Positions 33,800-64,000 of a stretch of DNA of 64,000 bases are shown one piece after another. Under the pieces are notes generated by a model. That model did not search any database. It was not told the origin of the DNA and saw only the letters and a program-made list of their open reading frames with translations. Numbering within the stretch: position 1 is the first letter of the stretch; every line of letters starts with the position of its first letter. Both the position numbers and the translations under genes were made by a program. Origin of the DNA: Eledone cirrhosa (lineage: Eukaryota); NCBI GenBank assembly GCA_964016885.1, contig OZ024743.1:303056001-303120000 (forward strand). The letters run 5' to 3'.

Positions 33800-34772
33800 A
33801 TTATGGGTGGCGGAAGTAGATTCTCATCCCTGGCGCAAGCCCGGTCTTGTTTTTTAATTTCTGAATGAGTTTTCGTCCGTGGTTAAGAGGTTACCATAAC
33901 TGGGAGCGTCGTACCTGGAATGTCACCAGGCACTCACTTCCTTCCACCAGGAGGGCAACACGGTCAGTAGAAATTCCACTCTAATTTTCTATAGAGGGTA
34001 ACTACAGAATCACATTGACCAGTCTCTTCCGGAGCACTTTCGATTCGGGGACTATGTATGGCTTTTAGAAAACACGTGCTTTGCACTGTTGCCGTGGTGA
34101 GGGACACTGATGGCTGGGGATAAACTTTACAGTCATTGAACAGTGATCGGACGGAGTTACCCGAGATGAGTTCAAAATGACGAAAGCGTTCTGCCCGCAG
34201 AAGCCCAGTGTCTGTGCATTATTGAGATTTAGATTTGTTCCGAAAAGCTGTTGTCGCGTGTGGGAGGGATCAGGCTGGCGCCCGAATCCGTAATGAAGGT
34301 GGCTCCGTCGACTTCTTTTGGACGATATGGGCAGGCAGCTTTCCGATGTTTGGTGGCCGTAGCAAAAAAGGTTGTGTGGTGGACCAGGTTGAAATGAGAG
34401 AAGCTAGACAATCTTCTCTTCACGCAACCCAGCATGAATAGTTTAATGTTTTGCTAAAATGTAGGTAACTTTTGCGAGAATAGTCCGTGTGAATTGGGCC
34501 TACTCTGCGATTGTGCCTATCGGCCTGTGTATTTCGAGAGGAGAGTAGTAGTCTCCTTTCCGGCTGCTCACGGAGCGTCAGGAGTTTAGGATTGGTGGAG
34601 TTCCTGAGTCACCATTGGTTGGTTCTCCCCCTTATTATATTGTAATTTTATTGTTTATTCTATTGCTTTATATTCTTTAAATATATTTTGGTATAATACC
34701 TAGGGTCCCTGTATTTTGTATTGTGCACTATATGTCGGCGTTATGGCAAATAAAGGAAAGAGAAACTATTAT
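33800..34772 (+). mobile_element. Old Tx1 3' fragment (subfamily 1-like)
   Basis: Collinear with about 2950-3862 (cctggaatgtcaccaggcactcac, gtgaattgggcctactctg); ATT-rich tail. Confidence 0.8.
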
Positions 34773-34799
34773 AATTATTATTATTATCATTATTCTTAT

Positions 34800-34985
34800 G
34801 GCAGTGGATTGGCAGTATCGGTAGAGGTTCAGATGCCATGCTTTGACGCATAGAGTTACGGCCTTTCTGAGTTCAAAACCCGCAGAGGTTAACTTTGCCT
34901 TTCATCCTTACGGGGTCGATCAAATAAAGTATCAGTAATGCACTGGGTAATTGCTGGCCATGAGCCAAATATAGAAACAATTATT
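34800..34985 (+). mobile_element. Full-length SINE
   Basis: Head, core and agaaacaattatt tail; sits in the ATT tract between Tx1 and Dong-A. Confidence 0.9.
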
Positions 34986-35008
34986 GTCATTATTATTATT
35001 ATTATTGT

Positions 35009-38000
35009 TCGTTGAGTCTCAGTCATTGATGTTATTTAACTGGAAAATGTGTTGACATTAATATGAAGCCGCTACCTGCAGTCTCACACATTCATGTCGT
35101 TTCAGAGGGTTCATGCTGTTCCCAGCAAGCATGACTTTTGAAGTGTTCCAAAAATCTTCTTTTACCATACTTGGAAACTCTTTAAGATAGTACCTAGTGC
35201 GCCTATGACAATCGGGAAGAAATTGATTTCATGGCAGTTCCAAAATCCTTTTTAACTCGCACTTTAAATCCTGGTATCGGTTAATTTTCTTCCTCTCCTT
35301 TTCTTGCACTCTCGGGTCAAATTGGTAGGCTACATCTACAATGAGGCAATATCTTTTTTCATTGTCCAAAACCACGAGGTCAGGCCTATTGTGTTCTAAT
35401 TCCTCGTTCGTCTGTATCCTAAAATCCCATAACACCTTTTCCTGATTGTTTTCTATCACCGACTCTGTCTTATGTTCGTACCACTTCTCAGAATTTGGTA
35501 TATTGTTTACTTTGCATAGATGCCAGTGGATCACCCTGCCTATCACATCATGTCTCCAGCCTTTATAGTGAGTCTGGTCTAGGTGTTTATAGTCGGATAC
35601 AATGTGATCCACAGTCTCCTCTCTCTCTCCACAAATCTTACGCAGGGAGCTAGCATCGTCATTGTTAATATGGTGTTTCACCCACTTCGTTCTGAGAGCT
35701 TGCTCTTGCGCAGCCATTAGCATACCTTCTATAGCCTTTTTAAGGTCTCCTCTTTTTAACCAGCTCCATGTCTGTGGATCTCTACATTCCGTTTTTTAAG
35801 GAAGGTGCTATGCAGGGATTTTTCATGAAGTTTGCTCTCCCTCCTTGTTGTTATTTCCTCCTTGGACATCACCTGGTCTATTGTCTTCTCCTTCAGTACA
35901 ATTTAGAGCATTGGCTCCCTACTGTCAGTCACATATTTGAGCAGGTTGTTTTTCTCCATCTGAACACAGTCCTCTATGCTGATAAGACATCTCCCACCTT
36001 CAGATCTCTTTAAGTAGAATCTAACACATCACTCCTCTTGTGGAACATGTTGTAGGTAGTCATTAGCTTCCTAGTCTTCCTATCCATTCCTTTTTGTTCA
36101 GCAACATTCCATTTCAGAATTCCTGCACTGTACCTAATAATAGACACATCTCGGGAATTTACTGTAATTATGACATTCCTACTATTTAGATGTGATTTTA
36201 GTACGTTCCTTACTCTCCCAATGTATTCAGATCTTATCAATTCCTTCAATTTTTTGTTCTTGATGTCATCTGCCTCCAGAACACCTAAATATTTGTATTC
36301 TTCTTCAGTGTCAATTTCCTTTATCATCTCACCCGTCGGTACCTGGATTCCGTTACTTCAGCTCAATTTACCCCTCTTCATCACTAGGTCTCCACACTTA
36401 TTACCACCAAATTGCATACATATATCATTGCTGAAAATACGAACAGTGTCAACAAGTACATCAAACTCATTCTCACTCTTCCCAAAGAATTTAAGATCGT
36501 CCATGAAGAGGAGGTGATTGATGGTAAGCTCTCCTCTTCTCAACCTGTCTCCTTCTCTCACTTTTCGCCATATGACGGGCAGGGGTATCAGGTCAAGGAC
36601 ATTCTGCAGAGAGGACAAACTATCTCCCTGGAAGATACCTCCCTTGATCTTCACCCCTCTGTTTCCCAGGACTTCATATTTTTGCTTAATAGCTGTGTGA
36701 TGTTATCTGCCACCTTGAAAATCTATAGCCTTTTGTTTATCCAAGAATGAGGTACCATGTGGAATGCCTTTTTCTAATCTATCCATCCCATGGAAAGACC
36801 AGTGTGCCTCCGCTTGCAATTCCTCATTACCATATTATCAATAAGAAACTGGTATTTTGTACCATGGGACTTCTTTCGGCACCCTTTCTGTTCGTCCGGT
36901 AACAAGTTGTTTATGTGGAGCTGATAGCAGATTTCCCCAGACACAATGCTTGTTAACAGTTTCCCATTGCGGACAGGCATGTGATAGGCCTATAGTTGGT
37001 AACATCATTACCTTTGATTCGGTCTTTCATTACTAGAACTGTGGTACATTTTTCAACCAATCTGGTACTTCACCCGACATCAATAACTCATTGAACATGG
37101 TTGTGAGTTTTAAGTGGAGGGATGTTATATTTTTAATCCAATACACTGGCACACAATCTTGGCCTGGCGATTTCAGTTGGTTACTTTTTTGGCCAGCCCT
37201 TTAAGTGTTTCAACAGTGATACTCAAATCAGATTGTTGGTGTTCTTGCTCACTAATCTACTTTTGAACTGTCTTAATCCACACTGCCTAACTATTATGTT
37301 CAACATCCTGCTTCCACATTGCTCTCCAGAATGTCTTAGTCTGTTCTGCATCAAGGGTCACGTCGTTGACACTTTCTTTCAACTTCTAGCTGTACAAACA
37401 ACATCTTCTGGTTGTTGTCAAATATGCGGTTCTGTCTATACCGACTAACTCTGTTCTCATACCTTTTAATCTTTGCACTTTTTGCTACAATGCGTTGCTT
37501 CAGTTCCCCTATGATAACATTGATCTCTTTTCCCCTAGTTTTGTATTTTATTTTCAATCTATGTTTAGTGTCTATGTTTTGTAATGTCCCATTCAGTAAA
37601 GACTCAAGCGTTCCAATGTCTTTTCTCATTTCCTTGTTTTGACCATTCAGTCATTTCTTCCACCAAGGTTCTGATCTTGCTTGTTTGTTGTTTCCTCTCG
37701 GTTTTATACGAAGTAATTTCTTCACCACATTTGCGGTTGCTTTGAGGATATTATTGCATTGGGGAAGGTTCCTTGCCTCAATGTATGGGATGACCTTGTT
37801 TACCTTAGCTGTTGTTTCTTTTAACTTTTTCCTGTCTACAAACCTTAGGTCCATAGGTTATCCACTATCATTGTTCATTTCATCTACCACTAAATTCAGG
37901 ATATCAACCAAATCTTGCATTCATCAGCATTCATTTCCTCATTGGCCGTATCTTTGTTCCAGATTTTATTTTTTTCAGCCTTCAGATCATTGTCTGCTTC

Positions 38001-39736
38001 GGATGCCTCCTTATGTCTATCAATTTCTTCACCTTCATTTCCCACTGTCTCATTTGCCTGATATACTCCACTCTCCATGTCCAACTTAATTTCTCTGCTC
38101 AGTTCCTCCAGTTCCAACTCGCTTATCCATACATTAGTTCTTATTACCCCAGCCTTACCGGCCAATATTTGTTCACCTAATTTAAATAGATCAATCTCGT
38201 TCCAGGTGTTATGCATCCGTTTCCTGTACCCTTTTTCCATACTCTTCAGGTAACATTTACTGACGGTTCTATTCAATTATATCATCCAGTTGGTTCTTGT
38301 ACGATTCCTTATTCTTCCTCCAACACCAGCAGTATTTGGTTGACAGTCAGGTCCCTGGTGCGGGGCCAGGGATCACTTGCTTGGTGAGAGTCTTTCACAT
38401 GACGTTCCAGTCTCCTTTTCACCGTTATTAGAACTGTTTAGGTTCGACATTTAAACTCTTATATCGAGGATTAGTTCATGTATGGTTACATAAGCAGCGG
38501 TGTTTTTAGCCTGACACCATCATGTTATAGACGAAAATAAATAAATGAACAAAAACATAAAGAAAATAAAAACAAGTTTCATTGTAATGTTTGAATGTCT
38601 GACTTAGTTTTTTCCTTTTTTTGTTTTTCAAGGCCAGTAACATCGGTTACTAGTATTGTTGCTGCTGTTTTTGATTTTAGCTAAGCTAAGCTCATAGTCA
38701 TAGCAACGAGGGAGGTATGGGGTGTTGCATTCAAACCTTTACAAATTTGTTTTTCTTTTAATGTTGCGTTTGTTTTTGTCTGCGTTCTGTTCTGTAATGT
38801 TTCGACTTGTTACTTATCTTGCCTTTCATCCTTACGGGGTCGATAAAATAAAGTACCAGTAATGTACTGGGTAATTGCTGGCCTTGTGCCAAAAAGTAGA
38901 AACAATTATTATGTGAGTTCAAATCTCGTCGAGGTTAACTTTGCCTTTCATCCTTACGGGGTCGATAAACTATAGTACCGGTAACACACTGAGTAATTGC
39001 TGGCCTTGTGCCTAAAGTAGAAACAATTATGTAAGCGGTCGAAAATTAAAGTACCAGTAATGTACTGGGTGATTGCTGGCCTTGTGCTAAAAGTAGAAAC
39101 AATTATTATGCAAGTTGACATCGTTTAAACTAAACATTTTGAGAGAGCTTAGAGAAACAACGACAATAATTATTATTATTATGGTGTTGTTGTTGGCTAT
39201 ATTGTTGGCTATATTAGTGCGACTGTTGTCAATGTTGGGATGTTCAACATTTTCTTTTGACCAGGTTATTAAATCAGTCTATTTATATATGTTGGTAGCT
39301 TCCTCGTTTATAGTCTTGTGTACTACTAACTTCCCTCTCTTAACAGAAGGTAGTGAGGGAATAGCGGTGGTAGCAATGATGGAGTGGTGACGGTGGTGAT
39401 GGGGTAGTGGTATTGTAGTGATTGTTGGTTTGTCTCTAGCTAAAGTTTGTGGTAGTGGTGGTTGTGGTGGGGTGTTGGTGGTTAACGTATTTGGCTGTTG
39501 TTTTCTTCCATTTGTGACCAGTAGTAACCATTTTCCTTGTTTAATATAACATTTCTAATACAAAATTAAATATTTTAGCCTTATGTCACGGTGTAGGTTC
39601 TCACTTCCTGAGAGTAAAGACTGGTACCTTATGTCCTATTTGTAACAGAAATTACAATTGTTTTAAATATGTAAAAAATCAAAGACTCACCGGAGCGATT
39701 CCATAACACTCTATCCACCTGGTGCATAATCTTCCC
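35009..39736 (-). mobile_element. R4/Dong-like family A element, apparently full length but decayed; ORF about 35110-38450, leader about 38450-39736
   Basis: Ordered ORF fragments GYRKRMH..W, PDEQKGC, FQGDSLS, FMDD, RHD and HNRPDL; TTA tracts at both ends. Confidence 0.9.
38818..39108 (+). mobile_element. Three head-to-tail 5'-truncated SINE copies inside the Dong-A leader
   Basis: Three successive gctggccttgtgc..aaagtagaaacaattat tails ending at about 38910, 39030 and 39108. Confidence 0.88.
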
Positions 39737-39759
39737 TTATTATTAATATTATTAAAAAA

Positions 39760-39950
39760 GGGCGGTGGATTGGCAGTATCGGTAGAGGGCCGCACGTAAT
39801 GTTTTCCAGCATAGTTACGTCCCTTTACGATCTGAGTTCAAATCCCGCCGAGGTTGACTTTGCCTTTCATCCTTACGGGGTCGATAAAATAAAATACCAG
39901 TAATGAACTGGATAATTGCTGGCCTAGTGCTTAAAGTAGAAACAATTATT
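39760..39950 (+). mobile_element. Full-length SINE
   Basis: gggcggtggattggcagtatcgg head, B-box, core and tail; flanked by ttattattaatattatta-like duplicated target sequence. Confidence 0.92.
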
Positions 39951-39968
39951 AATATTATTATTATTATT

Positions 39969-42419
39969 CTTTGAGTCTCAGTCATTGATGTTAGTTAACT
40001 GGAAAGTTTGTTGAAATGAATATCAAGCAACTACCTGCAGCCTCAGATATTCAGGACGTATCGGATAGTTATTGCTGTTCCCAGCAAGCATGCCTTTTGA
40101 AGCGTTCCAAAAAGCGTGAAGAGGCTAATTTTCTTTAACCATTCCTGGAAACTTTTTGAGATAGTACCTAGTGCGCCTATGACAATCGGGACCACTTTCA
40201 CTTCATGGCAGTTCCAAATCCTTTTTACCTCCCACTTTAAGTCCTGGTATCGGTTAATTTTCTCCCTCTCCTTCTCTTGCACTCTCGTGTCGAATGGGCA
40301 GGCCACATCCACAATCAGGTATGATTTTTTTCTTTGTCCACAACCACCAGGTCAGAACTATTGTGTTCCAGTTTCTTGTCCGCCTGTAACCTAAAATCCC
40401 ACAGCACCTTCACCTGGTCGTTTTCTATCACCGGCTCTGGCTTATGCTCACACTACTTCTCAGAATGTGGTAAATTGTTTACTTTGCATAGGTGCAAGTG
40501 GATCACCCTGCCCATCACATCATGACTCCAGCCCTTATAGTGAGTCTGGGCTAGTTGTTTACACTCAGATACAATGTGAGCCACAGTCTCCTCTCTCCAC
40601 ATATCCTGCACAGTGGGCTAGCCTCCTCCTTGTAAATATGGTGATTCAACCACTTCGTTTTGAGGGCCCGCTCTTACGCAGCCATTAACATTCCTCCTGT
40701 AGCGTTTTTAAGGTCTCCTCTTTTCAACCAGTTCCATATCTGTGGATCTCTGAATTCAGTTTTCTCAAAGAAGATACGCTGAGTGGATTTTTCCTGAAGG
40801 CTGCTCTTTCCTCCTTGGACATCCTCTGGTCTATGGTGCTCTCCTTCAGTACAGTTCTGAGCATTGGCTCCTTACTATCAGTCACGTATTTGTGTAGGTT
40901 GTTTTTCTCCATCTGAACACAGTCATCTATGCTGATAAGACATCTTCCACCTTCAGATCTCCTTAAGTAGAGTCTATCGACATCACTCCTCTTGTGGAAC
41001 AGGTTGTAGATAGTCAATAGCTTCCTAGTCTTCCTATCCATTTCTTTTTGTTCAGCAACATTCCATCTCAAAATTCCCGCACTGTACCTAATAATAGACA
41101 TAGCTCGGGAATTTTTGAACTTATGGCATTCCTACTGTTCAGATGTGACTTTAATACGCTCCTTACTCTCCGAATGTATTCAGTTCTTATCAATTCCTTC
41201 ATTTTTTTTGTTCTTGATGTCATAAGCCTCCAGAACACCCGACTACTTGTATCCTTCTTCAGTCTCAATTTCCTTTATCATCTCACCTGTTGGTACCTGG
41301 ATTCCGTTACTTCTGCTCAATTTACCCCTCTTCATCACAAGGACTCCGCACTTACTAATACCAAATTGCATACATATATCATTGCTGAAAATACGGACAG
41401 TGTGAACAAGCACATCCAACTCCTCCTCACTCTTCTCGAAGAGCTTAAGATCGTCCATGAAGGGGAGGTGATTGATGGTAAGCTATCCCTTTCCCAACTT
41501 GTATTCTGCTCTCACTTTTCGCAGTATACTGCTCAGAGGCATCAGAGCAAGGACAAACAACAGAGGGGACAGACTATCTCCCTGGAAGATACCTCTCTTG
41601 ATCTTCACGCTTTCCAAGGATTCTCCAGCTGATGTTAACTCTGTTTTCCAGGACTTCATACTTTTGCCCAACAACTGTCTGATGTTATCTGCCACCTTGA
41701 AAATCTCCAGACTTTTGGTGATCCAAGAATGAGGCACCATGTCAAATGCATTTTTCTACACTATCCATCCCATGGCAAGACCAGTGTGTCTCCTCTTGCA
41801 ATTCTTCATTACCATCTTGTCAATAAGTAACTGGTTCTTTGTACCACGGGACTTCTTTCGGCATCCTTTCTGTTCGTCCGGTAACAAGTTGTTTGTGTGG
41901 AGGTGATGGTAGATTTCCTCAGACGTAATGCTTGTCAACAGTTTCCACATTACAGACAGACATGTGATAGGTCTATAGTTGGTAACATCATTACCCTTGA
42001 TTCGGTCTTTCATTATCAGAACTGTGGTACCTTTTGTCAACCACTCTGATACCTCACCTGACATCAAGCTGTCATTGAACATGGTTGTCAGTTTCGGGTG
42101 GAGGGAAATTATATTTTCAATCCAATACCCCTGCACACCATCTGGGCCTGGTGATTTCCAGTTGGTTAGTTTTTGGCCTGCCCCTTAGGAGTTTCAACTG
42201 TGATACTCAAATCAGTTTGTTGGTGTGCCTGTTCACTAATCTCCTTCTGTACTGTCTCAATCCACACTGCCTGGTCATTATGTTTAACATCCTGCTCCCA
42301 TATTCCGATCCCGAATGTTTTGGTTTGTTCCGCCTCAGGGATCAAGTTGTTGCCTCTTTCTTTCCCTTCAAGCTGTCCAAACAATATCTTCTGGTTGTTG
42401 TCAAACATGCGGTTCTGTA
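39969..42419 (-). mobile_element. R4/Dong-like family A, 5'-truncated (RT to RLE and 3' UTR), frameshifted
   Basis: ORFs 40043..42136 with RT and RLE motifs. Confidence 0.92.
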
Positions 42420-42439
42420 TATTATTATTATTATTATTA

Positions 42440-44786
42440 CAGTTGCATTTATCTTGCTTTATGTTCATACGAGTTATCACCAAGTCACAACCAGTGACCT
42501 CAAGAGACAACAAGGTCCGCCATGTTCAAGAAAGAACATACATATTCACACATGCATCTTTAGTGTTTAGACTTGTGATGTACTTATATTGACAGAATCT
42601 TCCTTAGTATATGGGCAGTTCCCATTAGTACTATCTTTTGTATTTCTCCTATACGCGGGTTTCCTGGGATTTGCGATATGTAATCATTAGACCCCTTAGG
42701 TATCATTCCCAGAGCGCCTACAACCACTGGTATTGTTTTAGTTCTCAATTTCCACATTTTTCCAATTTCTATCTCCAGGTCCTTATACTTGCTCAATTTT
42801 TCAAATGTTTTTATAGATACATTCTTGTCTATTGGAACAGACATATCAATTAGCAGGCATACCCTCTTTTGAAAGTATTTCAATAATATATCAGGTCTGT
42901 TTGCATCTATTTTTCGGTCTGTTTGGATGCTAAAGTTCCACAAGATTGAGATGTGATCTTTTTCAAGTATGGGAGGTGGTTGATGCTCCCACCAATTCTT
43001 TTGATGGGGCAGGTCAAAATGCTTACACATTATCCAATGTATGTATTGTGCAGCTCTGTCATGCCTGTTTAGGTATTCGGTTGGAGCTATAGGACTGCAC
43101 ATTGAAATTATATGGTCAATGGTCTCTGGTTGTTTTTTGCATACACGGCATAATGGGCTGCACCCATTTTTTATTATGTTGGCTTGGTAATTTTTTGTTG
43201 GCAGACACTGATCTTGTGCCGATATAATCAGTCCTTCAGTCTCCGATTTCAGTCCAGAGGATGCCAACCACTGATGGGTTAAAGTTTTGTCAACATCAGG
43301 ATTGTTAGCTCGCTCTGGGTATTTTCCATACAGAGGCTTTTCTTGCCATTTCTTAGCCAGTTTCTGTAGCAGTTCTTTCTTTGCAGTTACTTTTACCTGC
43401 TTTGCTTTTTCTGTGTTTTCCATTTCAGCAGTAAATGGGACTTCTGAAACTTGTAGTCCATTACTGTATCTTTGTGCATCTTTTGTAATGGAATATGATC
43501 TTTTGATGCTTTCGTGTTTCAAAACGAGTTTGATCATCCAATCATGTGATTCCCTTAGATATGTAGATAATCCAATCGTTGCAATTTTCAACACAATGTC
43601 TAACTGGATTAACCCACGTCCTCCTTCTTTCCTAGGGAGATATATTCTATCTATATCTGCTTTAGGGTGATGCATTCTGTGCATGGTTAAGAATTTTCTC
43701 ATTTTTGTATCGAGCCTACGGATCTCTGTGCTTGACCAGTTGATGACATTGTAACTGTAGGTTACTACTTTATGGCAAGCGTGTTTATGGCATCGATCCT
43801 ATTCCTTGCATTCAATTCCGTTTTTAAGATTGCTCTCACTCTGCGGTAACATTCCTTCCTTATCCGTTCCCTCATTGTCGAGTGCTTGATTCCGTCTCCT
43901 TCACAAACACCTAGATATTTGTAAGTTTTTTCTTGATCAAGTTTTCTTATCACGTTCCCCCGATCAAGATTAATGTCTGAACTCTTCAGCAGCTTTCCTC
44001 TGGTGAACGTTGCTTTGGCGCATTTATCTTGTCCAAACTCCATTTTAATGTCATCACTGAACTGCTTCAGAGTGGATAATAGCCCTTGCAATTGTTCATC
44101 ATGTTTTGCAAATAGTTTCAGGTCATCCATGTAGAACAGGTGATTAATGGTTTTGTCATAGACTTTATATCCATGCTTTGTTTCATTGAGCATTTTGTTT
44201 CATTGAGCATTTTGTTTCATTTTGTTTCATTGAGCATTTTACTTAATCGTATAAGTGCGATGCAGAATAAAAGCGGTGATAAAGAGTCACCCTGAAAAAT
44301 TCCACACTTAATATTAACTTCTCCAGCCTCCAGTGAGTTTGTGTCACTATTCAAAAGGAGTGTCGTTTTCCATGTCTTCATACTGAATGACAAAAACCTC
44401 CTGACAACGGGGGATACTTTGAAAATCTCTAAACATTTTTCAATCCAACTGTGTGGTAAACTATCAAATGCCTTTTTATAATCCATCCAAGCAATCGATA
44501 GATTTTTGTGTCTATTATGACAATCTTCCAGTATCATTTTGTTAACCAGAAGCTGATCCATACAGCCATATGAGCCTCGTTTATAACCCTTTTCTTTTTT
44601 GAATACAAAATATATAATACAAAATTGAATATTTGAGCGATATAACAATATAATATGTATCCGAAATTTTATGCGACTTGATTCGGTGGTTTATGCAACA
44701 TTTCACAATTGATTTAAATATGTTAAAAATCAAAAACTTACGGGAACGATTTCATGACCTTCTACCACCTCGTGCGTCTTCTTCCG
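42440..44786 (-). mobile_element. R4/Dong-like family B, internally deleted copy retaining the 5'-terminal 200 bp
   Basis: 42440-44590 matches 5036-7140; 44590-44650 matches the leader end at 61450-61518. Confidence 0.9.
44177..44240. repeat. Tandem amplification of a 17-bp unit (tttgtttcattgagcat) inside the RT
   Basis: Three full units and one partial unit here; single unit in the other Dong-B copies. Confidence 0.9.
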
Positions 44787-44820
44787 TTATTATTAGTATT
44801 ATTATTAACATTGTTGTTAT

Positions 44821-45663
44821 TCCTTGAATCACAGTCATTGATGTTGGTTAACTGGAAAGTCCGTTGGAATGAATATCAAGCCACTACCTGCAGCCTCAGA
44901 TATTCAGGACGTATCGGAGGGTTCTTGCTGTTCCAAGCAAGTATGCCTTTTGAAGCGTTCCAAAAAGCGTGAAGGGGCCGATTTTCTTTAACCATTCCTG
45001 GAAACTTTTTGAGATAGTACCTAGTGCGCCTATGACAATCGGCATCACTTTGACTTCATGGCAGTTCCAAATCCTTTTCACCTCCCACTTTAGGTCCTGG
45101 TATCGGTTAATTTTCTCCCTCTCCTTCTCTTGCACTCTCGTGTCGAAAGGGCAGGCCACATCCACAATCAGACACGATCTTTTTTCTTTGTCCACAACCA
45201 CCAGGTCAGGTCTATTGTGTTCCAGTTGTTTGTCCGTCTGTATCCTAAAATCCCACAGCACCTTCACCTGATTGTTCTCCATCACCGCCTCTGGCCTATG
45301 CTCATACCATTTCTCAGAATGTAGTAATTTGTTTACTTTGTACAGGTCCCAGTGGATCACCCTGCCCATGACATCGTGTCTCCAGCCCTTATAGTGGGTC
45401 TGGGCTAGGTGTTTACACTCGGACACAATGTGAGCCACAGTATCCTCTCTCTCTCCACAGATCCTGCACAGTGGGCTAGCCTCCTCCTTGTAAATATGGT
45501 GCTTCAACCACTTCGTTTTGAGTGCCTGCTCCTGCGCGGCCATTAGCATTCCTTCTGTAGCTTTCTGAGGTCTCCTCTTCTCAACCAGTTCCATGTCTGT
45601 GGATCTCTAAATTCAGTTTTCTCAAAGAAGGTACTATGAAGGGATTTTCCCTTAAGGATGCTC

Positions 45664-45664
<1 letters not shown>
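44821..45664 (-). mobile_element. R4/Dong-like family A, short young 3' fragment
   Basis: ORF 44896..45594 with CCHC knuckle and RLE. Confidence 0.93.
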
Positions 45665-45743
<79 letters not shown>

Positions 45744-52398: not shown

Positions 52399-52400
52399 TA

Positions 52401-52402
<2 letters not shown>

Positions 52403-52480
<78 letters not shown>
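52403..52480. repeat. (ATT)n microsatellite
   Basis: Directly visible; head-to-head Dong-A/Tx1 junction. Confidence 0.98.
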
Positions 52481-55400
52481 GGTCTGTTCGGACGTTCTTT
52501 GATCGTTCCCAGTAAGTCGCTTTATTTACCTGTTATAATTATATTTTGCTTAATTTTTCTCGTTTTGTAAGTTATATAAGCCCTTGGACTTTGCCCTGTG
52601 AAGGGGAAAGTATAATATTTGGGCCTGTTGGCCCAAATATTAAATTAATATTTGAACATTTTACTGTTAAAAATAAAAAAAAACATCGCTGAGCCACGAC
52701 CCCCAGCAATATGTCTGCTGTCGTGTGACAACGGCGTAAATGTTGAGAAGAGGCTACCAGAAACTCACACAACAAACAACGTGAACAGAGCCAACAACAC
52801 TGAGAACATTAATTTTGAATAAATTACCACACAAACTACAACAATAATAGCGTCAACCAAAATACAGACAACAGAAAAAATATGACAACAAATGCAACAA
52901 CGATATTAACACCACTAACATAAACTTAAACAACGAAAACACCAACAACAACAATACATATTGGACCGAAAATACCAACGAAGGTGGCACCAAGAACACA
53001 AACAGCTACAACTGTGATAACAGCTACAAAACCAACAACACCGTTTGTAGCAGTTACAACAGCAACAGTACCAACAAAACCAGTAGCATCAGTAGCTGCA
53101 ACAATAATGGTGCCGCTGAAAAAGGGGCCACTTCTTTCGCAGGTGTGGCCCGAAATATAGGGACAGTGGTAGTCACGGAGGAGGAGCTGGCAGTCGCAAG
53201 AGCCATGGTGTCAAGATACGACAAGAGATTGCCACGGAGGTTCAAATCGAAAAGATCTTGGGGTGCGTCTGCGCGCAAAAAACCCACATCACCAGAGGCA
53301 AAAAGTACGAAAACAGTAGACGTACTATCCTCCACCCCCCAAGAGGCGAACTCTCACTCGTTGGAAACCCTAAATAGTGAGGTGATCATCTTGGTGCTCT
53401 CATACTGCGGGCAGAAATTGTGAGAGTCAAAGTGACCCAGGTCCCACCCAACCTGCCCATAACTTGGCTGGCCCCGTCAATACTGGCTGGAATCTAGGAG
53501 AAGTCCACGATACTGCAAATACAGAGAATGGGAAGAGAGAACTGGTCAGGAATAGACATGCAAATGCTAATACAGACTGACCAGGGTTGCTTCGTTGCCA
53601 AAAAGGTATACAGCCATAAACATGGCAAATAAAGGACTCTTACAACATATAAAGAAGCACACAGACATCACAGAAAAAAACTACTACACCTCACCAACAC
53701 CAAGAACTCACCCGAAAAGCATAAACATAATTGAAATCAATATAGAACATTAGAAACTGTTAAAAGAAAAATTCCCCAACTCAGTTGGAGAATTCAGAGG
53801 GTCGGTTACCAAATGAAAACACCCATAAACAGCTAAAGGGACGGTTCTATTGTCCTTTCTCCACACAATCAAGGTTTGTGATCCTTTCTCACTTACCCCG
53901 CTTCTCATCCAACATGGCCGTACTTAGAATAGGCAGTACAAATGTACGTGGCCTGGGGGTCATCTTGGAAGCAGGGTCACCTGCTCAACAACCTCAGGTT
54001 ACTAAACATAGATGTGGTGGCCATCAGCAAGACCAGAATCTCCGAAGCTAGAGCCTTCGCACAGATCTTCAGCGGCTATGATGTATACGCAAATCCCACG
54101 GGTCGGTAGAAAAGGGCTATTCGAGTAGAATCGATAAGGTTTAGCAAAGGAGTAGTGATAGAGGAAAATATAGTAGAGCGAGAGTTAGTTTGAAAGCTAG
54201 AAGAAGCGTTTAGGTCAGGCATCGCAACCGGCGTGTTTGTGGCAAAATTGGCACTCGACCAATTCTTCAACGCAAAGCATGAAGGTTGCGTTGTCGGAGC
54301 TAGAACGCGTGCTCTAAGACACGAGGGAACCAAAACCGTTCAATGGGCCCGGGTGGTGGCGCGCGACGTAGCAACAAGACCACAGTTTTGTCTTTGCCTG
54401 ATCAAAACGGACGCATGTTGCTCGAACCCGAGAAGATGTGTGCGGCTTTTCGACAGCACTTTGCTCAATAGTTCCGGAGCGGCGTCAGGCCGGATCGGTG
54501 TATGGACTTCGGTGTATACCTCAACGGACTGCCGCGGCCCTTACCACCGTGGCTTACTGCTGTGAAAAGTTGATAACGGCAGGTGAAATACGGGGCGCGA
54601 TGTCTGCTGCACGAGGGGTAAATTGCCAGGTTTGGATTATCTGCCCTACAAGCTTTATGCGCATATGCCAGATTTCCTCGGCGACCTCTTGGAAGAGGTC
54701 TACTGCAACGGGCAGAAGAACGGGAGCAGTTTTGTGAGCCGGGGATCGGTGGCACTGCGGTGAAAGGAACTGAACAAGAAGGACGTTATAGACAACTTCA
54801 GGCCCATAACTCTTCTATACGCAGAGTTTAAGAGTTTGACCAAGGTGTAGAGCAAAGATATTTGCGATGCACAGGAACATCTGCTCGATTGTGAGGGTGA
54901 ATGGTCATCTGTTGCAACTTTTCAGCATCATCCTCGGTCTGCCAGGGTTGCCCCTCTCGTCTCTCTTGTATCTACTGGCCCTCGAGCCGTTACTGCACAA
55001 ATTGGACAGGGTCCTACGCGAACTGGGATGCGGTAAATCCGTATCAGCTTACGCCGACGATCATGGTGGTGGTGTCGAGCACCAGACACGTCCGGATGCT
55101 CGGCACCGCTCTCAAGGAATACGAAGCGGTGACGATAGCATGGATAAACCAGGAAAAGTCGGTAGACTTGCAGCTCGGCACCTGGAGAGGAATGTCCAGC
55201 CGCCCGACAGCGTCGTGGGCGTTGGACGGACGGATCGGTTAAATTGCTCGGGGTTTTGTTAGGACGGACCTCCAGATGGAGAATAACTGGAGCGAGGTGA
55301 CGACCAGGTGGCCTCCCTCACCCAGAAATGGGCTGAGAGGAAGCTGACCCTGAAAGGCCGGGCTGAGGTGGCAAATGCGCACATCGCATCCGTCAAATGC

Positions 55401-56713
55401 TACCGCCTCACCATCGTCCCTTGCCCCGGCCCAACTCTCACCAAAACGGAGCGCCTTTCTTCCGCTTTTTGTGGAAGGGACGCACTCCCATGGTCAGACA
55501 ATCCATCTGCTGACAAAACCCGTTGCGTGGAGGTCTGGGTATGCCATGGATGATGATGTGCAAACATGCGCTGAGGCTGCGATATCTCTAGTGCTTCCTT
55601 GACGGTGAACAGTTGTGGTCGCCGTTCACCAAGCACGTTTTTCCACAGCTCGTCTCCTTGACTGAGCTGCAGTCCTGGGTCACGAAATGACCGAGGGATA
55701 GCGCTCGGAAACTGGAATGTATCCAGGCGTTCACCGCCCTCTGCCAGCTGGGCACCAGTATCGGTGGATCATCCACCTCGGCGTTCTATAGAGGACTAGT
55801 GGAGTAGAAGTGCGACGACGGTCTCGGAGAGATCTTGGGCGTCGAAGAAGATCAGCTGTTTGCTCTCTTCCGGAGAACTTTCAGCCCGGGTCCTATGGAT
55901 AACTTCCAAAAATCCCTGGCCTGGCAGTACTACCGGGGAGAGTTGCCAGTTCGATATAAGCTCTACAGGCACGGAAGTGCCGTCAGCCGAGCCTGTTCGA
56001 TATGCGCGTAGAGAGACGAAACCGTCGTGCACGCCCTCGTTCAGTGCCCGAGCATTGCTGACTTGTGAAGCTATGATGAACAGTTGCTCTCGCGTGTAGG
56101 ACTGTTCCGGTTATCGACTGAACCCATTGTGCAGATGGTCCCGCCGTATTCCTTCGAGGTGGAAGGGCATGGTTTTTTTTATCTGCCTGGTGGCCATGGC
56201 GAAAGAGATTGCGTGGTGGCCAAGGTTGAAAGGGTTAAAGACAGACACTTTCCTCTTCGGCGAATCCCTAATTAACTTTTTCAAATTTCACTTGAAGAGG
56301 AAAATTAGGGTGCAGAGGCAAATACTGCCTTCTAGCAAGTTTGTTGAAAGGTGGGTGAATGTAGCGAGAATGGTCCGAGTGAACGGGACCGCTCTGAATA
56401 TACGGCTGTAGTTTGAGAAATGGAAAAATTGAGAGTAGGCGCTTGCCCTGGTGGTCAGGTTGCCGTGGTATTTTGTGTGGTTTTCGCCAGGAGCAACGCT
56501 CGGAGGTTCCCCCTATTGGGGAATTTTTCATTGTTTCAATTTTCATTTTTAATGTTTATATATATATATATATATTTCTATGTCTTTGTTTTCTTTTCTT
56601 ATATAAAAAATAAAAATCTTTACACGCACAAAACCCACATTGTACCGTCCTGTCTCGTTCTGTGCCGTATGTAATGTTTTTCTTGATGTCAGCCCTTGTG
56701 GGCAATAAATAAA

Positions 56714-56715
<2 letters not shown>
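52481..56715 (+). mobile_element. Tx1/L1-clade LINE with both ends present, large internal deletions (about 54100 and 54860), decayed
   Basis: MAVLRIGSTNVRGL, SAYADD, WAERKLTLKGR and FKFHLKRK; (ATT)n on both sides. Confidence 0.9.
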
Positions 56716-56755: not shown

Positions 56756-56756
<1 letters not shown>

Positions 56757-59700
56757 AGTTGCATTTATCTTGCTTTATGTTCATACGAGTTATTACCAAG
56801 TCACAGCCAGTGGCCTCAAGAGACAACCAGGTCCGCCATGTTCAAGAAAGAACATACATACACACACATGCATCTTTAGGTGTTTAGACTTCTGATGTAT
56901 TTATATTGAGATAATCTTCCTTAATATATGGGAAGTTCCCATTAGTACTATCTTTTGTATTTCTTCTATGCGCGGGTTTCCTGGGATTTGCGATAAGTAA
57001 TCATTAGACCCTGTGAGTATCATTCCTAGAATGCCTACAACCACTGGTATTGTTTTAGTTCTCAATTTCCACATTTTGCTAATTTACATCTCCAGGTCAA
57101 TTTTTCAAATGTTTTTTATAGATACATTCTTGTCTATTGGAACAGACATATCAATTAGCAGACATACTCTCTTTTTAAAGTACTTCAGTATTATATCATG
57201 TCAATTTGCATCTATTTTTCGGTATGTTTGGATGCTAAAGTTCCACAATATTGAGATATGATATTTTTCATGTATGGGAGGTGATTGATGCTCCCACCAA
57301 TTCTTTTGATGGAGCATGTCAAAATGCTTACACATTATCCAGTTTATGTATTGTGCAGCTCTGTCATGCCTATTTAGGTATTAGGTTGGAGCTATAGGAC
57401 TGCACATTGAGATTATATGATTAATGGTCTCTGGTTGTTTTGTTACATACACGGCACAATGCGTTGCATCCATTTTTTATTATGTGGGCTTGGTAATTTG
57501 TTGTTTGGAGACACTGATCTTGTGCTGATATATTCAGTCCTTCCGTCTCCGATTTCAGTCCAGAGGACGCCAACTACTGATGGGTTTAAGTTTTGTCAAC
57601 GTCAGTATTGTTAGCTTTATATTGGTATTTTCCATACATAGGCTTTTCTTGCCATTTCTTAGCCAGTTTCTGTAGCAGTTCTTTCTTTGTAGTTACATTT
57701 TACCTGCATTGCTCTTTCTTTGATTTCCATTTCAGCAGTAAATAGGACTTCTGAAATGTGTAGTTCATTACTGTATCTCTGTGCATACTTTGTAATAGAG
57801 TATGATCTTTTGATGCTTTCGTGTTTCAAAACGAGTTTGATCATCCAATCATGTGATTCCCTTAGATATGTAGATAATCCAATTGTTGCAGTTTTCTACG
57901 CAATATCTAACTAGATTAACCCACGTCCTCCTTCTTTCATAGGGAGATATATTCCATCTCTATCTGCCTTAGGGTGATGCATTCTGTGCATGATTAAGAA
58001 CTTTCTAAATTTTGTATCGAGCCTACGGATCTCTGTGCTTGACCAGTTGATGACATTGTAATTGTACGTTACTACTGGTATGGCAAGCGTGTTTATGGCA
58101 TCGATCCTATTCCTTGCATTCAATTCCGTTCTTAAGATTGCTCTTACACTGCTGTAACATTCCTTCCTTATCCTTTCCCTCATTGTCGAGTTCTTGATTC
58201 CGTGTCTTTCACAAACACCTAGATATGTGTAAGTGAACTCTTCATCAAGTTATCTTATCACATTCCCCCGATCAAGATTAATATCTGAACTTTTCAGCAG
58301 CTTTCCTCTTGTGAACTTTGCTTTGGCATTTATCTAGTGCAAACTCCATTTTAATGTCATCACTGAACTCTTTCACTGTGGATAATAGCACTTGTAATTG
58401 TTCATAATTTTTTGGAAATAGTTTCAGGTCATCCATGTAGAACAAGTGATTAATGGTTTTGTCATAGACATTATTATCACATTTTGTTTCATTGAGCATT
58501 TTACTTAATCATATAAGTGCGACGCAGAATAAATGCGGTGATAAAGAGTCACCCCGAAAAATTCCACAATTAATATTATCTTCTCCAGCTTCCAGTGATT
58601 TTTTTTCACTATTCAAAAGGAGTGTCGTTTTCCATGTCTTCATACTGAATGACAGGAACCTCCTGACAACGGGAGATATTTTGAAAATCTCTAAACATTT
58701 TTCAATCCAACTGTGTGGCAAATAATCTAATGCTTTTTTTATAATCTTTCCTAGCAATTGATAGATTTTGGTGTCTATTATGACAATCTTCCAGTATCAT
58801 TTTGTTAACCAAAAGCTGATCCTTACAGCCATATGAGCCTCGTTTTACACCCTTTCTGCTCAATGGGAAATAGACCATTTGTTATCAGGTGGTCATATGT
58901 ATATTTAGTTGGGATTAATGTTAACATTTTATACATTGTGGTCAAGCAAGTTATCCGTCTGTAATTTTTAGGATTGTTTGTCTCATCATTCTTCGGAAGT
59001 AGGAATGTAATGCCGTTAACTATTGATGATGGTATATTTTCTATCTCCTTAAATATTTCATTGTAAAGTTGGTCTAACAGCTCATGAGACTCTGTGAAAG
59101 CATTTATCCAAAAATTTTGTATTTTGTCTTTTCCTGGGGATTTCCATTTGCTGGTTTTTCTTAGAGCCACACGGAACTGTTCAACTGTTATATTTTCCCA
59201 TGTCTGTTCCTCAAGGTGAGCTGTATCTTTCATATGTATGTCTATCCATGGGTCAAGTATATTATGAACTTCTTCTTCGGCCCAGATCTTTTTCTCAGAA
59301 TTCTTGCACTTCCTACTTGGGTGGTATTGATTTAGCAGTTATTGTTGACTTGCCAATTCTTCTGTAGAAGTTTCTTTGGTTGTTTTTTAACATATTATTG
59401 TCCTTATAGAATCTAGATCGTGTTTCAAAGCGCCTTATACTAGCAGCTTTGTCCGACACCTTTTGCTTGATTATTTCTATCAACATGTCTATGTCACTTG
59501 TTGATTTGATACTGTATTTTTTTTCAATTTTCTAAGTTTAGTTTGTTTAACATGTTCACCTACTTTGTAGTTGGTTAAAATGTCTATGTCAGATCGGAGA
59601 AGGTTTATTTGACGATTGATGTTCTCTTGCCAAGTAGATTTCTTGTGGGAATTCCTTTGTTTTTACATTTTCACTCCACATAAGTGAGTGGTGACTTTAG

Positions 59701-61518
59701 CCGATGCATAATAGAGGTGATTTAGATCAGTAATCTTTAGTTTGTTTGTGATGAAAATGTTTTTGAGAATTATGTTAGTCTTGTGTATTATCTTTTGGTT
59801 CTGTTTGGAGTTCTGGATCTTAGGGAGAGTGTCTCGTTCCCTCATGTCAGATTCTTTCATTTTCATCCATTCGATCATAATTTCATCATTCAAGATGGCA
59901 AGTTCATTCTCATTCATTTCTTTATCATTTATGATCTCATTGTTTTCATTTTGATTTTCTTCTTGAGCATGCACTCCCTCCACTTTTTCAATCATTTCTT
60001 TAATTTGTTCTGCTGTCAGTGATTCCGCCCCCACCCTGTGATACGAAGTGTTACAATTTACCTCGTTTTCACTGACACATGTTTCATTTTCCCTTCGCAG
60101 ACTTTGTGCTAATAGCTTGATCTGATCAATTTCTATATCAGTTAGTAACTTTTTTTTAACAATATTTCTTCGTATATTGGCTAGTTTGTTACTGTCAATA
60201 TAGCCTCTGTTTTCGGGATGTTTCTTTTTCCAGTGGATATATGTCTGTTCTGCATTCGATCAATTTGATGGGTAGTACATAGTAGTGTAGAAAACCTCAA
60301 GGACTTCTTTATTGTCTTTTCTTGACCATTTTTTTCTCTTTTTCTTTGGATTTCTTAGTGGTGCGCATTGAGGGCCAACAGTAGGAGTATTCCGGTTATG
60401 GGAGGTATCCAGCTGCGAAGTGATGGGAAGGTTTGAACCATTAGCTGATCTTTCACCCCCAGTCTGGTCCCTCTCTGAGGGACGCGGCCGTGTTTGACCC
60501 GGGTGACGGCCGATCCGGTATCACATTTTATCATTTGACATTTACTTTATTTTGTTGCATTTTATCCTTAACCGCCAAGTTGTAATCATTTCGTGTTACC
60601 ACTTCTAGGACGAGTGTCAACCAAGACTAGAGGGGTCGTCCTCCCCTAGAGACATGGCTATTCCCCGGCAGCCGCCATCCCGGTATTTCTTGGTCACGGG
60701 GTTTTCTTTTTTGTTGTTTTTTATATTGTTAATATCATGAGTGGTTCCTTAATGTGAACATTGCGTGGCTTAAGAATGAAATTATTATTAATAATATAAT
60801 ATACTTTTTTGCTGAAGTTGCCTGTTATTGTTGTTGGCTATGTTGGTGATGATGCTGGGGCTTTTTCTATTGTTGGTGGGGAAAGGGTGAGTCAGCAGTG
60901 CCATAGTCGTTGACGTTTGACCGAGTCACTAAGTCAGTCTATTTATATATTTGGCTAGCCTCTCCCTTGTCTAGTGATACTGCCACCTTCCCCTTTCTTA
61001 AGTTAACAGAAGGTAGTGTGGGAATAGTGGTGGTAGCAATGTAGGAGTGGTGACGGCGGTGATAGGATAGTGGCAGCAATGATTGAGTGGTGGCGGTGGT
61101 GACTATAGTTATGGCGTTGTCGTTACTGAGTTCTGTTGAATAGACTGTAGTAGGATGCGTTTGTTTGATCTCTATATCTATGTGATTTGTCGCGTATGTT
61201 GATATTGGTTGACATATTTCCTTAATATTTGAATTAAACATTTTGAGAACACTTGATATACAATGATATTAATTATTATTATTATTATGCTGGCATTGGT
61301 TGTGGTGGTGGTGAGATTGTCGTTATCTGGCTGTTGTATTTAGTGTACACAGAGGGGTGATGGGATAGGTAGTGTATCGAGGCTGTTCTGGTGGTGAAAT
61401 TGCTGTTATTTGGCTGTTCTATATAGTGTAAACAGAGGGGGTTTTCTTCCATTTATAACCATTTTCTGTTTTGAATATGAAATTCATAATACAAATTGAA
61501 CATTTCCGCGATATAACA
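56756..61518 (-). mobile_element. R4/Dong-like family B, near full length, older and decayed (ORF about 56900-60541)
   Basis: Collinear with 5036-9650 throughout; (ATT)n at 56716-56755. Confidence 0.93.
60607..60696 (-). ncRNA. Second copy of the candidate Dong-B leader pseudoknot
   Basis: AGGACGA/UCGUCCU replaces AGAACGA/UCGUUCU. Confidence 0.55.
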
Positions 61519-61995
61519 GTGTCCGAGCATTGCTGACTTGTGGGTTTATGTCGAACACCTGCTGTCACGTCTAGGACGGATCCAGCTATCAGCTGAGTCC
61601 ATCGTGAGGATTGCCCCGCTCTCTTCCTTTAGCCGGCAAGTGCAGGCAGTTTTTATCTGTCTGGTGGCCATGGCGAAAGAGATAGTATGGTGGACACGTT
61701 TGAAAGGGCTGAAGACGAGCACTTACCACTTCGGTGATGCCCTGATTAACTTTTTCAAATTTCATTTGAAAAGGAAAATCAGGGTAGAAAGATGGGTGAG
61801 AGAAGAAGGTATGGCCTGAGTGAATGGGCCTACTCTGAGTATGTGTCTGCAAAGTAAAGGTGGAAAACTGGGAGAGGGCACTTGCCCTGGTGGTCAGGGT
61901 CACTGTAGACTTTCAATGGGCTTTCTCCACAAATCTCCCTCGGAAGTCTCCCCCCTATTGGGGAATTTTTCATTGTTATTTTTTTTATTACACCC
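61517..61995 (+). mobile_element. Tx1 3' fragment (subfamily 2), 3' UTR cut short by a SINE
   Basis: ORF 61538..61819 is near-identical to 4450-4761. Confidence 0.9.
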
Positions 61996-62120
61996 TTGCC
62001 ATTCTGAGTTCAAATCCCGCCGAGGTTGACTTTGCCTTTCATGCTTACGGGGTCGATAAAATAAAGTACCAGTACTGTAATGGATAATTGCTGGCCTTGT
62101 GCCTAAAGTAGAAACAATTA
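61993..62120 (+). mobile_element. 5'-truncated SINE
   Basis: cccttgccattctgagttcaaatcccgccgagg...gtagaaacaatta. Confidence 0.9.
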
Positions 62121-63205
62121 TTTATTTCAGCATTCAGATCATTGTCTGCTTCGGATGGTTCCTCGGTTCTCTCAACCTCATCACCTTCATTTCCCACTGG
62201 CTCGTTTGCCTGGCATACTCCACTCTCCATTTCCAACCGAATCTCTCTGCTCAGTTCCTCCACTTCTAGCTCGCTTATCCACCCATTAGTTCTTATTATC
62301 CGAGCCTGCCCGGCCAATTTTTGTTCATCTAATTTAAATAGACCAATCTCGTCCCAGATGTTATGCATCCGTTTCCTATAGCCTTTTTCCTTGGGGTTAC
62401 TCTTCAGGTAACATTGCATAACAGTTCTATTCAATTCTTTCGTCCACTGGTTCGACAATTAAACACTCTTATCGAGGATTAGGGAAAGTATGGTTAAATA
62501 ACCACTGGTGATTTCATCAGTCCCGGTGATTTTTGTGTGGCACTATCACGCTGTAGACGAACATAAATAAACAAACAAACAAACAGGCCAAAAAAAATCC
62601 CCAAAAAGAATAAGCATAAGTTTCATTGTAATGTAATGTTTGACTGTCTGACTTAGTTTTTCCCTTCCCTTCTCTCTCCTTCTGTTTGTCTTTCTCTTCA
62701 TTTTTCTTTTCTTTACGTCTTTCGTTGTTGCTGTGCTGCTTTGATTTTGATTTTTGTTTTTTTGATTTTTTGACCGGGTCATCAATTCAGTTTATTTATA
62801 TATTTTGAGGCCTTCCTCTTTTAGTGGGGACACTACGATGCATGGGTTAGCAGGAGGGAGTGGGATAGAATAGCGGCGGTAGTGATAATGAGGCAGTGGT
62901 GGTGGTGGAGGTGGTGCTGAGCTAGTAGTACTTAGCAGGAGGTAGTGGGAGAGAATAGTGAGGCAGTGGCCGTGGTGATGTGATCGTATCAATGTAGTGA
63001 TGGTGTTGAAGTTGAAGCAGAAATAGAAGTTGAGGCAACTTGACTAGAGTTTTTAGCGTGGTAGTGGTGGTGGTGGTCTTGGTGGTGAAATTAACTTCTC
63101 TGTCCACTTAGCCATTTAGCTATTTAGCTATTTAGTCATTTTGCCATTTTCCTCCTTTTCGACTCTAACATTCCTGATCCCAAATTAAATATTAATATTG
63201 TTTAT
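62121..63205 (-). mobile_element. R4/Dong-like family A 5' part (leader and ORF N-terminus)
   Basis: QWTKELNRTVMQCY...GYRKRMH; collinear with 37970-39580. Confidence 0.85.
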
Positions 63206-63210
63206 TAATA

Positions 63211-63570
63211 TTGTCTAGTGATACCGCCAACTTCCCCTTTCGTAAGTTCACAGAAGGTAATGGAGGAATAGCGGTGGTAGCAATGAAGGAGTGGTGGCGG
63301 CGGTGATGGGATAGTGGTAGCAATGATGGATGGGCGGCGCCGGCGGTGACTGCAGTGACGGCGTTGTCGTTACTGAATGTTGTTGAATAGACTGTATTTT
63401 TGTTTGATCGGTGAATCTATGGGGTTAGTCGCGTATATGTGTTGACATATTTCTTTAATATCGGAATTAAACATTTTGTTAAAACTTGAGACAATAATAA
63501 TAGTAATTATTATTATTATGCTGAGATTGGTGGTGATGGTGGTGAAATTGCCGTTATATGGTTGTTGACT
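63211..63570 (-). mobile_element. Isolated fragment of the Dong leader module
   Basis: Similar to 60968-61330. Confidence 0.75.
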
Positions 63571-63608
63571 TACCAATTTTTCTAATATTATTATTATTAT
63601 TATTATTA

Positions 63609-63922
63609 CAGTTGCATTTATCTTGCTTTATGTTCATACGAGTTATCACCAAGTCACAACCAGTAACCTCAAAAGACAACAAGTCCGCCATGTTCAAGAA
63701 AGAACATACATATTCACACATGCATCTTTAGTGTTTAGACTTGTGATGTAATTATATTGACATAATCTTCCTTAGTATATGGGCAGTTCCCATTAGTACT
63801 ATCTTTTGTATTTCTCCTATACGCGGGTTTCCTGGGATTTGCGATATGTAATCATTAGACCCCTTAGGTATCATTCCCAGAGCGCCTACAACCACTGGTA
63901 TTGTTTTAGTTCTCAATTTCCA

Positions 63923-63924
<2 letters not shown>
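63609..63924 (-). mobile_element. Dong family B short 3' fragment; another Dong-B 3' end begins at about 63997
   Basis: Matches 42440-42756; (ATT)n at 63924-63996 is followed by cagt. Confidence 0.9.
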
Positions 63925-63997
<73 letters not shown>

Positions 63998-64000
63998 AGT

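Follow-up and report, generated by a model that had tools for sequence, protein, structure and literature searches.

The window analysed here, a 64,000-nucleotide stretch of the Eledone cirrhosa genome (OZ024743.1:303,056,001-303,120,000; 3.0-Gb assembly), contains two dense stacks of retroelements in which three groups are sorted by strand around a single trinucleotide repeat. Dong elements, which are long interspersed elements (LINEs) with a restriction-like endonuclease (RLE), have their sense direction on the (AAT)n strand; the (ATT)n strand is that of Tx1-like LINEs, which have an apurinic/apyrimidinic endonuclease (APE), and of a tRNA-type short interspersed element (SINE). The two stacks are real and the same order is found genome-wide; as to what produces it, we consider it probable that the nucleases set the strand, helped by short pairing at the RNA end.

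The annotation library consists of natural element copies, three of them window copies that match themselves, and was applied to the window plus 50 kb on each side. The genome at large was sampled in twenty unselected 40-kb blocks (800 kb) and, for pair counts, in a set of 163 seed loci, which does not include six self loci and two loci overlapping locus L181. Neighbours were counted as adjacent when no more than 120 nt apart, with Tx1 pieces below 80% identity excluded. Counts of head and tail flanks were pooled across the sampled DNA with identical flanks collapsed, and those for Tx1-C rest on incidental copies.

On the + strand of the window there are 25 ATT-type arrays of at least three units and three of AAT type; all 25 lie within 1-11.3 kb or 33.8-64 kb, and two of the three AAT arrays lie elsewhere. 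The original prediction had placed ATT repeats of the plus strand at most element boundaries in these two intervals, and this stands, with the refinement that five of the 25 (at 2606, 39169, 60781, 61272 and 63506) are internal to Dong and are not boundaries. It had also read all Dong pieces as minus, all Tx1 pieces in the clusters as plus and all SINEs of the right cluster as plus, which agrees with the library annotation: Dong is minus throughout, and in both clusters all Tx1 pieces and all free-standing SINE pieces are plus. The six tail-to-tail and head-to-head joints that it named all exist (the one at 34772-35009 encloses a whole SINE), and several head-to-head joints are found without any repeat (2760/2761, 10863/10864 and 61518/61519). 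The two minus-strand SINEs that it listed as exceptions, at 9074 and 13545, are real as well, and both obey their own local ATT strand. The former belongs to a SINE 3' fragment (9058-9138) that is a passenger in the 5' untranslated region (UTR) of a Dong-B element and has been copied along by a Dong-B subfamily; an unlinked Dong-B, L198, carries the same fragment, and the site into which it went is of ATT type when read along the Dong strand.

Together, Dong, Tx1 and SINE sequence makes up 94.5% of 33.8-64 kb, as against 2.2% of 11.3-33.8 kb and ~6% of the 800 kb of unselected genome. Both stacks reach past the window: the left one starts at -15.7 kb and ends at 11.3 kb (27 kb, 92% filled), the right one starts at 33.8 kb and ends at 69.4 kb (36 kb, 95% filled), and the gap between them is 2% filled. 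Their pieces are 67-98% identical to the library, which argues for growth over a long time, and no element copy in the window has an intact open reading frame (ORF).

Relative orientation follows the same rule elsewhere. Dong and Tx1 neighbours are opposite in 9/9 pairs in the window +/-50 kb, 45/46 at the seed loci and 4/4 in the unselected blocks; for Dong and SINE the counts are 8/8, 18/18 and 4/4; and SINE and Tx1 neighbours are parallel in 6/6, 41/45 and 2/3. Among unselected arrays of at least four units, 35 of 74 lie within 40 nt of a Dong, Tx1 or SINE, as opposed to ~4% for random points, and 43 of the 46 array contacts in these blocks are on the predicted strand. The clustering that the original prediction proposed to compare with background is thus evident, and orientation in other clusters is not random; one of these, in the unselected block at C2:60.0 Mb, is a stack of mirror polarity.

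Genome-wide, Dong reads along the (AAT)n strand. AAT is found upstream of 18 of 20 Dong heads, the remaining two having AAG, and at 58/59 and 38/38 Dong tails; in two sets of 5'-truncated copies read by eye it lies upstream in 8/8 and 11/12. There are two families, A and B, with a 5' UTR of ~1.1 kb and a single ORF that contains a reverse transcriptase (RT; RVT_1), a C-terminal zinc knuckle and RLE motifs (in P0021). The hallmark RLE motifs of the R4/Dong clade are RHD and PD..D..K, and the sense-orientation insertion into (TAA)n that characterizes R4/Dong is what we see here. Against the PDB the Dong protein finds R2 proteins as best matches (E 2.5e-28), with L1 weaker at 1e-12. Elsewhere in the genome Dong-A has intact open ORFs of 1141-1142 aa, and the 3' ends of Dong-B are 100% identical in 40/40 of the best matches listed. 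A scan of the window with Rfam gave sub-threshold matches only, mostly to TA repeats, and none to an HDV-like ribozyme at the Dong 5' end, for which no dedicated fold was tried. At L100, L106, L135, L138, L159 and L207 the AAT runs at Dong joints often turn into (AAG)n before the next Dong head.

The Tx1-like LINEs show the same regularity on the other strand. At least three ATT units lie within 30 nt upstream of 92 of 94 full-length heads (A, 50/50; B, 23/25, one of these also with AAT; D, 19/19), against a background of 0.3%, and the last triplet before the head is ATT in 90 of 94; the target-preference criterion applied to the Tx1 clade in the part of the crocodilian study covered is >20% of flanks (PMC4494074). 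At each of the 30 Tx1-A head loci, the window's included, (TTA)n immediately precedes the head, and at many of them the surrounding DNA is unique apart from this repeat. The flanks of Tx1 and Dong are thus repeat-rich on opposite strands, as the original prediction required of their 5' sides. Its suggestion that insertions regenerate target through their own tails is also upheld: of 85 Tx1 heads with sufficient flank, 23 lie in a SINE tail and 12 in a Tx1 tail, so that earlier insertions provide much of the target; the other heads comprise 3 located at a full-length Dong head and 47 located elsewhere, truncated Dong included.

ORF1 of these elements has a CX2CX4HX4C zinc knuckle of the kind typical of Tx1 (in P0024, L341 and L342; no Pfam match), and ORF2 comprises an APE endonuclease, an RT and a C-terminal zinc knuckle. 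The best PDB match of ORF2 is human L1 ORF2p (E 1e-27), its endonuclease best matching L1-EN variants, and among the 120 relatives listed is one from Argonauta hians that is 65% identical over the C-terminal part. We use the name Tx1 for what structure and targeting suggest, rather than from a tree with named references. A search of the genome with the endonuclease scored 149 places, ~129 of which are, by eye, in open frames of 1139-1204 aa; several of these copies form same-strand tandem arrays with ~6.08 kb spacing, five of them consecutive at C2:188.05-188.08 Mb. At the 3' end, AATAAA precedes the repeat run by ~7-9 nt. The young ATT-clade copies examined (L341 and those in L343-L359) are Tx1-D, whose 5' end and ORF1 are unlike those of the window's Tx1-A: aligning L341:309-2618 with window 45948-48100 shows a shared ORF2 (endonuclease, 96%) and a different 5' UTR and ORF1, which suggests a swap of 5' modules in the youngest copies. 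Among the public runs matching a stretch of young Tx1 ORF2, no RNA run was listed; in runs X2-X7, of three organism codes and three studies, 0.82-0.94 of the words of that stretch are present. Elsewhere, a Tx1-B copy at L187 has its interior inverted behind the first ~340 bases, and an old Tx1-like copy at L244 (C2:60.01 Mb, block 13675-15651) is preceded by (AG)n and ends in an ATC-rich tail, which may point to a third target.

The SINE has a short body with Pol III A/B box-like motifs, read by eye, and we presume a likeness to Deu/Nin; ARAGORN found no true tRNA. It makes up ~3% of the sampled DNA and reads along the (ATT)n strand. In the unselected blocks, two ATT units occur in the 30 nt before 52 of 81 SINE heads and two AAT units before 5 of 81, with a background of ~4-5% for each. 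Of 209 SINEs searched for target duplications, 85 have them, including 43 from the unselected blocks; their consensus start is ATTAT(T) and their median length 16 bp, and the base just outside them is a pyrimidine in 24 of 31 cases, compared with 60% expected (p ~0.03). The SINE 3' end has a short core in common with the Tx1 3' ends, and for the long SINE variant the top score falls right at the terminus of Tx1-B, of Tx1-C and of the TATC family described below, with Dong ends ranking low. In strand and register the SINE agrees with the ATT-clade Tx1 elements, and it is likely mobilised by a Tx1 enzyme.

A sister group of Tx1 families, found in the unselected blocks, has (TATC)n in its tails and 5' flanks and forms same-strand stacks of its own (L342, at C1:168108300-168114700; L287-L290; L311-L340). 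For one of these families the best 40 matches listed are all 100% identical. Of eight truncated copies, five have upstream TATC runs, two a TATCT-type flank and one neither; one of those with a TATCT-type flank, L315, has a 16-bp duplication, and its 'tail' is merely the target duplication, as is sometimes the case in this clade. In a protein tree the TATC rows form one clade (100/100), sister to a clade (96/95) that holds the ATT families and also takes in two long-branched rows with other or unknown tail; automatic tail labels failed for 12 of the 26 rows, and counts of label changes were discarded. The two clades have nearly identical 3' ends and endonucleases that are 61% identical, and we take this to favour a role for the nuclease in target choice. 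The endonuclease hairpin, which influences target choice in L1 (PMC1950540, part of the text), reads TNRIGSS in the ATT clade and RNHSGQS, ANRSGSS or TNHSGQS in the TATC clade.

The strand of the repeat, its register, the relative orientation of the elements, the SINE duplications, the intact Dong and Tx1 proteins and the insertion into earlier tails are directly supported, and the following scheme is built upon them. In target-primed reverse transcription, the strand complementary to the sense strand of the element is nicked first and primes copying. By this logic the Dong RLE would nick the (TTA)n strand, at about TTA/TTA, and the Tx1 APE, serving itself and the SINE, would nick the (AAT)n strand at a T/A step, to within one or two bases. 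Short pairing between the last nucleotides of the RNA and the DNA end exposed by the nick would probably help. Every insertion would split and partly duplicate the run and, because repeat of the same strand would thereby be left on both sides, later arrivals of all three groups would inherit the polarity. The SINE, likely borrowing the Tx1 enzyme and apparently requiring only ATTAT, might seed new targets genome-wide. The fuller picture, to which we would give an even chance, is that of an active guild of unrelated retroelements that splits one microsatellite by strand and builds expanding, polarised safe-harbour stacks, seeded by an abundant Tx1-driven SINE, with two young sister Tx1 clades recording a switch between (ATT)n and (TATC)n through a few endonuclease changes or the RNA end.

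Several observations weigh against this account. Outside the window there are 12 exceptions in orientation (9 at seed loci and 3 in unselected blocks); the seed loci are best matches, not random ones, and possible overlaps among them may mean double counting; and the unselected sample holds only 8 Dong-partner pairs. The SINE takes bare ATTAT and full-length Tx1 elements are nearly always in long runs, so that one enzyme would not suffice for both without a further factor; SINE-Tx1 tail pairs other than those named above rank unevenly, outranked by up to 541 of 1158 windows; and the pyrimidine bias at SINE duplications is weak, possibly an artefact of duplication calling. At 34 junctions of apparently 5'-truncated Tx1-A/D copies, three ATT units are found in 12, two in 3 (one of which looks spurious) and none in 19. 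AAT is found at none of the 34, and of the 19 repeat-free junctions 6 are fused to an antisense Dong, 2 to the last base of another Tx1 and 2 are SINE interruptions; these could have arisen if insertion removed the target on the 5' side or if it was deleted afterwards. Repeat-free head-to-head fusions of Dong and Tx1 and last-base joints of Tx1 to Tx1 are also seen among L024, L037, L057, L192 and L212, and for such fusions target deletion or template jumping is possible. Finally, tail equals target everywhere, and RNA-DNA pairing alone could explain this.

In that case nicking would be loose in AT-rich DNA, only nicks able to pair with the repeat at the transcript end would be extended, and the repeats themselves would be gained by read-through. 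Such a role for RNA pairing has been proposed for RTE elements (PMC6007223, in the part covered), and it would fit the identity of tail and target in all four groups, the proximity of AATAAA to the Tx1 3' end and the slightness of the difference between the ATT and TATC clades in the endonuclease hairpin. However, insertions of the TATC clade and of the SINE often share only ~5 nt with their target, the bases just outside the duplications show a slight bias, and the endonuclease of Xenopus Tx1L is sequence-specific by itself (PMC1950540, same part), so we regard a choice of strand by the RNA as rather unlikely. It is much harder to believe that Dong alone is target-specific and that Tx1 and the SINE insert anywhere, merely supplying ATT tails that Dong reads on the other strand: Dong tails do often abut Tx1 or SINE tails, and over half of the truncated Tx1 copies have no ATT upstream, but the upstream ATT units of full-length Tx1 heads are found in unique DNA too, and SINE duplications in unselected DNA start with ATTAT.

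Two further explanations would make the stack a local accident or a selected locus, and we think both very improbable. A one-strand silencing locus, similar to those of PIWI-interacting RNAs (piRNAs), or the direction of host transcription, might account for a dense and long-lived accumulation of elements, but Dong and Tx1 are opposed and hence not jointly antisense, and the rule is valid even where just two elements meet in isolation, and it reverses wherever the repeat itself lies on the other strand. The multiplication of one ancestral joint by local duplication or mis-assembly, which we would rank as the most improbable of all, could draw on a ~200-bp duplication at 45542-45971 and on a 5.6-kb likeness between 3903-9388 and 55519-61062. 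The latter pair was considered as a segmental duplication and dropped; its two members share 86% identity, and in them Dong-B copies of unlike age are joined to Tx1 elements from different families. The pieces of the stacks vary from 67 to 98% in identity to the library, and joints of this kind are found on many other chromosomes, where their flanks are unrelated. Contigs from four public runs at window 60700-63580 are too short to span unique joints and are neutral on the assembly. The reading we prefer is still that of strand choice by the nucleases, and the proposal of the original prediction, that two unrelated nucleases nick opposite strands of one repeat, is supported to that extent.

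Table 1. Elements and joints of the two stacks, with two SINEs from the interval between them (window positions).
Position	Strand	Feature
1..2760	-	5'-truncated Dong-A end (1-1218) and Dong-B fragments (1227-2760), left stack
2761..3862	+	Tx1-C 3' fragment, 5' end joined directly to minus Dong-B; (ATT)12 at 3863-3898
3903..5017	+	5'-truncated Tx1-A/D with ATT runs flanking both sides
5036..9388	-	Dong-B, ~95% identical to L198; SINE 3' fragment in 5' UTR (9058-9138)
9389..11280		Older Dong pieces (-, 9389-10863) fused to older Tx1 3' end (+, 10864-11280)
13547..13849	-	Two SINEs outside stacks; own-strand target duplications begin ATTATT
33800..34770	+	Old Tx1-like 3' fragment, 67-75% identity to library
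34800..34979	+	SINE flanked by ATT runs
35009..38700	-	Older Dong-A, decayed, near full length
38819..39101	+	Three tandem SINE 3' fragments
39169..39739	-	Dong 5' UTR; full-length head at ~39737
39755..39944	+	SINE; head-to-head with the Dong on one side, tail-to-tail with that on the other
39965..45890	-	Dong run: A 39965-42422, B 42440-44789, A 44818-45665, duplicate 45766-45890; ATT runs between
45664..45947		Head-to-head joint: (TTA)n runs of 26 and 19 units, local duplication
45948..51496	+	Tx1-A, full-length, decayed: ORF1, APE endonuclease, RT, zinc knuckle
47632-47817		SINE inside Tx1-A, 18-bp target duplication
51497..51625		Tail-to-tail joint: ATT runs and plus-strand SINE 3' fragment
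51626..52399	-	Young 5'-truncated Dong-A (98%); RLE domain open
52403..52480		Head-to-head joint, (ATT)26
52481..56715	+	Tx1-B, full-length head, decayed; then (ATT)13
56756..61518	-	Dong-B, near full-length, 89%
61519..62116	+	Tx1-A 3' fragment joined directly to Dong-B, then SINE
62117..64000	-	Older Dong pieces, then young Dong-B tails (63609-63929, from 63997) with (ATT)7 and (ATT)24

G-rich pieces at 39169-39740, 60800-61500 and 62700-63580 had been considered as minus-strand Tx1 and were dropped, being Dong 5' UTR. Between the stacks, a 403-aa frame on the minus strand (21696-22907) resembles the C-terminal part of a Penelope-like element; its Atlas neighbours carry HTH_animal and, in one set, GIY-YIG, and the frame itself has no Pfam match.

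Sharing of one repeated target is known from R1 (APE) and R2 (RLE), which both insert into 28S rDNA; they differ from the Dong/Tx1 pair in using separate sites within the gene, and their insertion regenerates no target. SART and TRAS are both R1-clade elements and both carry an APE. In the telomeric repeat of Bombyx mori these two families lie in opposite orientation and form arrays (PMC10088271, in part), and they are the closest precedent: opposite-strand sharing of one repeat is already established there. The likeness lies in two families that share a repeat in opposite orientation and form arrays; here, however, the repeat is a dispersed trinucleotide, not a telomeric one, it is shared by RLE and APE elements, and a SINE is the third party. 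With L1-group and R4-type proteins in interstitial (ATT)n, the Eledone elements are not of the SART/TRAS type and only work alike. Dong of B. mori has TAA repeats in its upstream flank (PMC3774820, in the portion covered), in the same register as here, and the same single ORF with RT, zinc knuckle and RLE motifs. It differs from the Eledone elements, which comprise two families with the long 5' UTR described above and have partners on the opposite strand, and it has a 5' ribozyme, a structure for which Rfam gave nothing here.

For Tx1, the families Kibi, (TC)n, and Koshi, (TTC)n, and crocodilian families at (TTCC)n/(TTTC)n are specific for microsatellites (PMC4494074), and like ours they are L1-group elements bearing an APE. 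The targets differ, being (ATT)n here and (TATC)n in the sister clade, neither of which occurs in the text of that paper covered, with the labels of its figure 3 and its supplements outside it. The same source argues from shared target preference that SINEU is mobilised by Tx1-Mar in crocodilians; the SINE described here differs in being of tRNA type, its 3' end resembles Tx1 over a short stretch, and it targets a microsatellite. Papers on octopus repeats report Dong-R4, L1-Tx1 and tRNA-Deu SINEs as abundant or recently active, and the parts of them covered hold nothing on targets or orientation (PMC13282606, PMC8967140, PMC9115989, PMC10294476); nor is there anything relevant in the portions covered of PMC4640811, PMC5035012, PMC4758252 and PMC3124438. 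Full-text literature searches, with Repbase and several original papers outside their scope, found no ATT- or TATC-specific Tx1 and no co-nesting of Dong and Tx1, in line with the original prediction, which took an (ATT)n-specific Tx1 co-nesting with Dong to be undescribed. Nor did they find a dispersed repeat whose two strands are divided between an RLE and an APE element. Dong in TAA repeats, microsatellite-specific Tx1, a Tx1-driven SINE and opposite-orientation sharing of a repeat are already known separately; new here are the ~129 Tx1 copies with open ORF2, SINE duplications that start with ATTAT combined with a Tx1-like tail, and the (TATC)n sister clade.

If the account given here is true, the dense retroelement hotspots of this octopod genome and many of its AAT/ATT microsatellites would follow from an insertion rule and not from selection, and a candidate driver would be named for its abundant SINE. 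The Tx1 enzymes are intact and recently amplified, and they use two microsatellite targets with almost the same RNA end. With these paired clades it becomes possible to test directly whether the nuclease or RNA pairing chooses the target, and the two may offer a natural pair for reprogramming the targeting of a retrotransposon.

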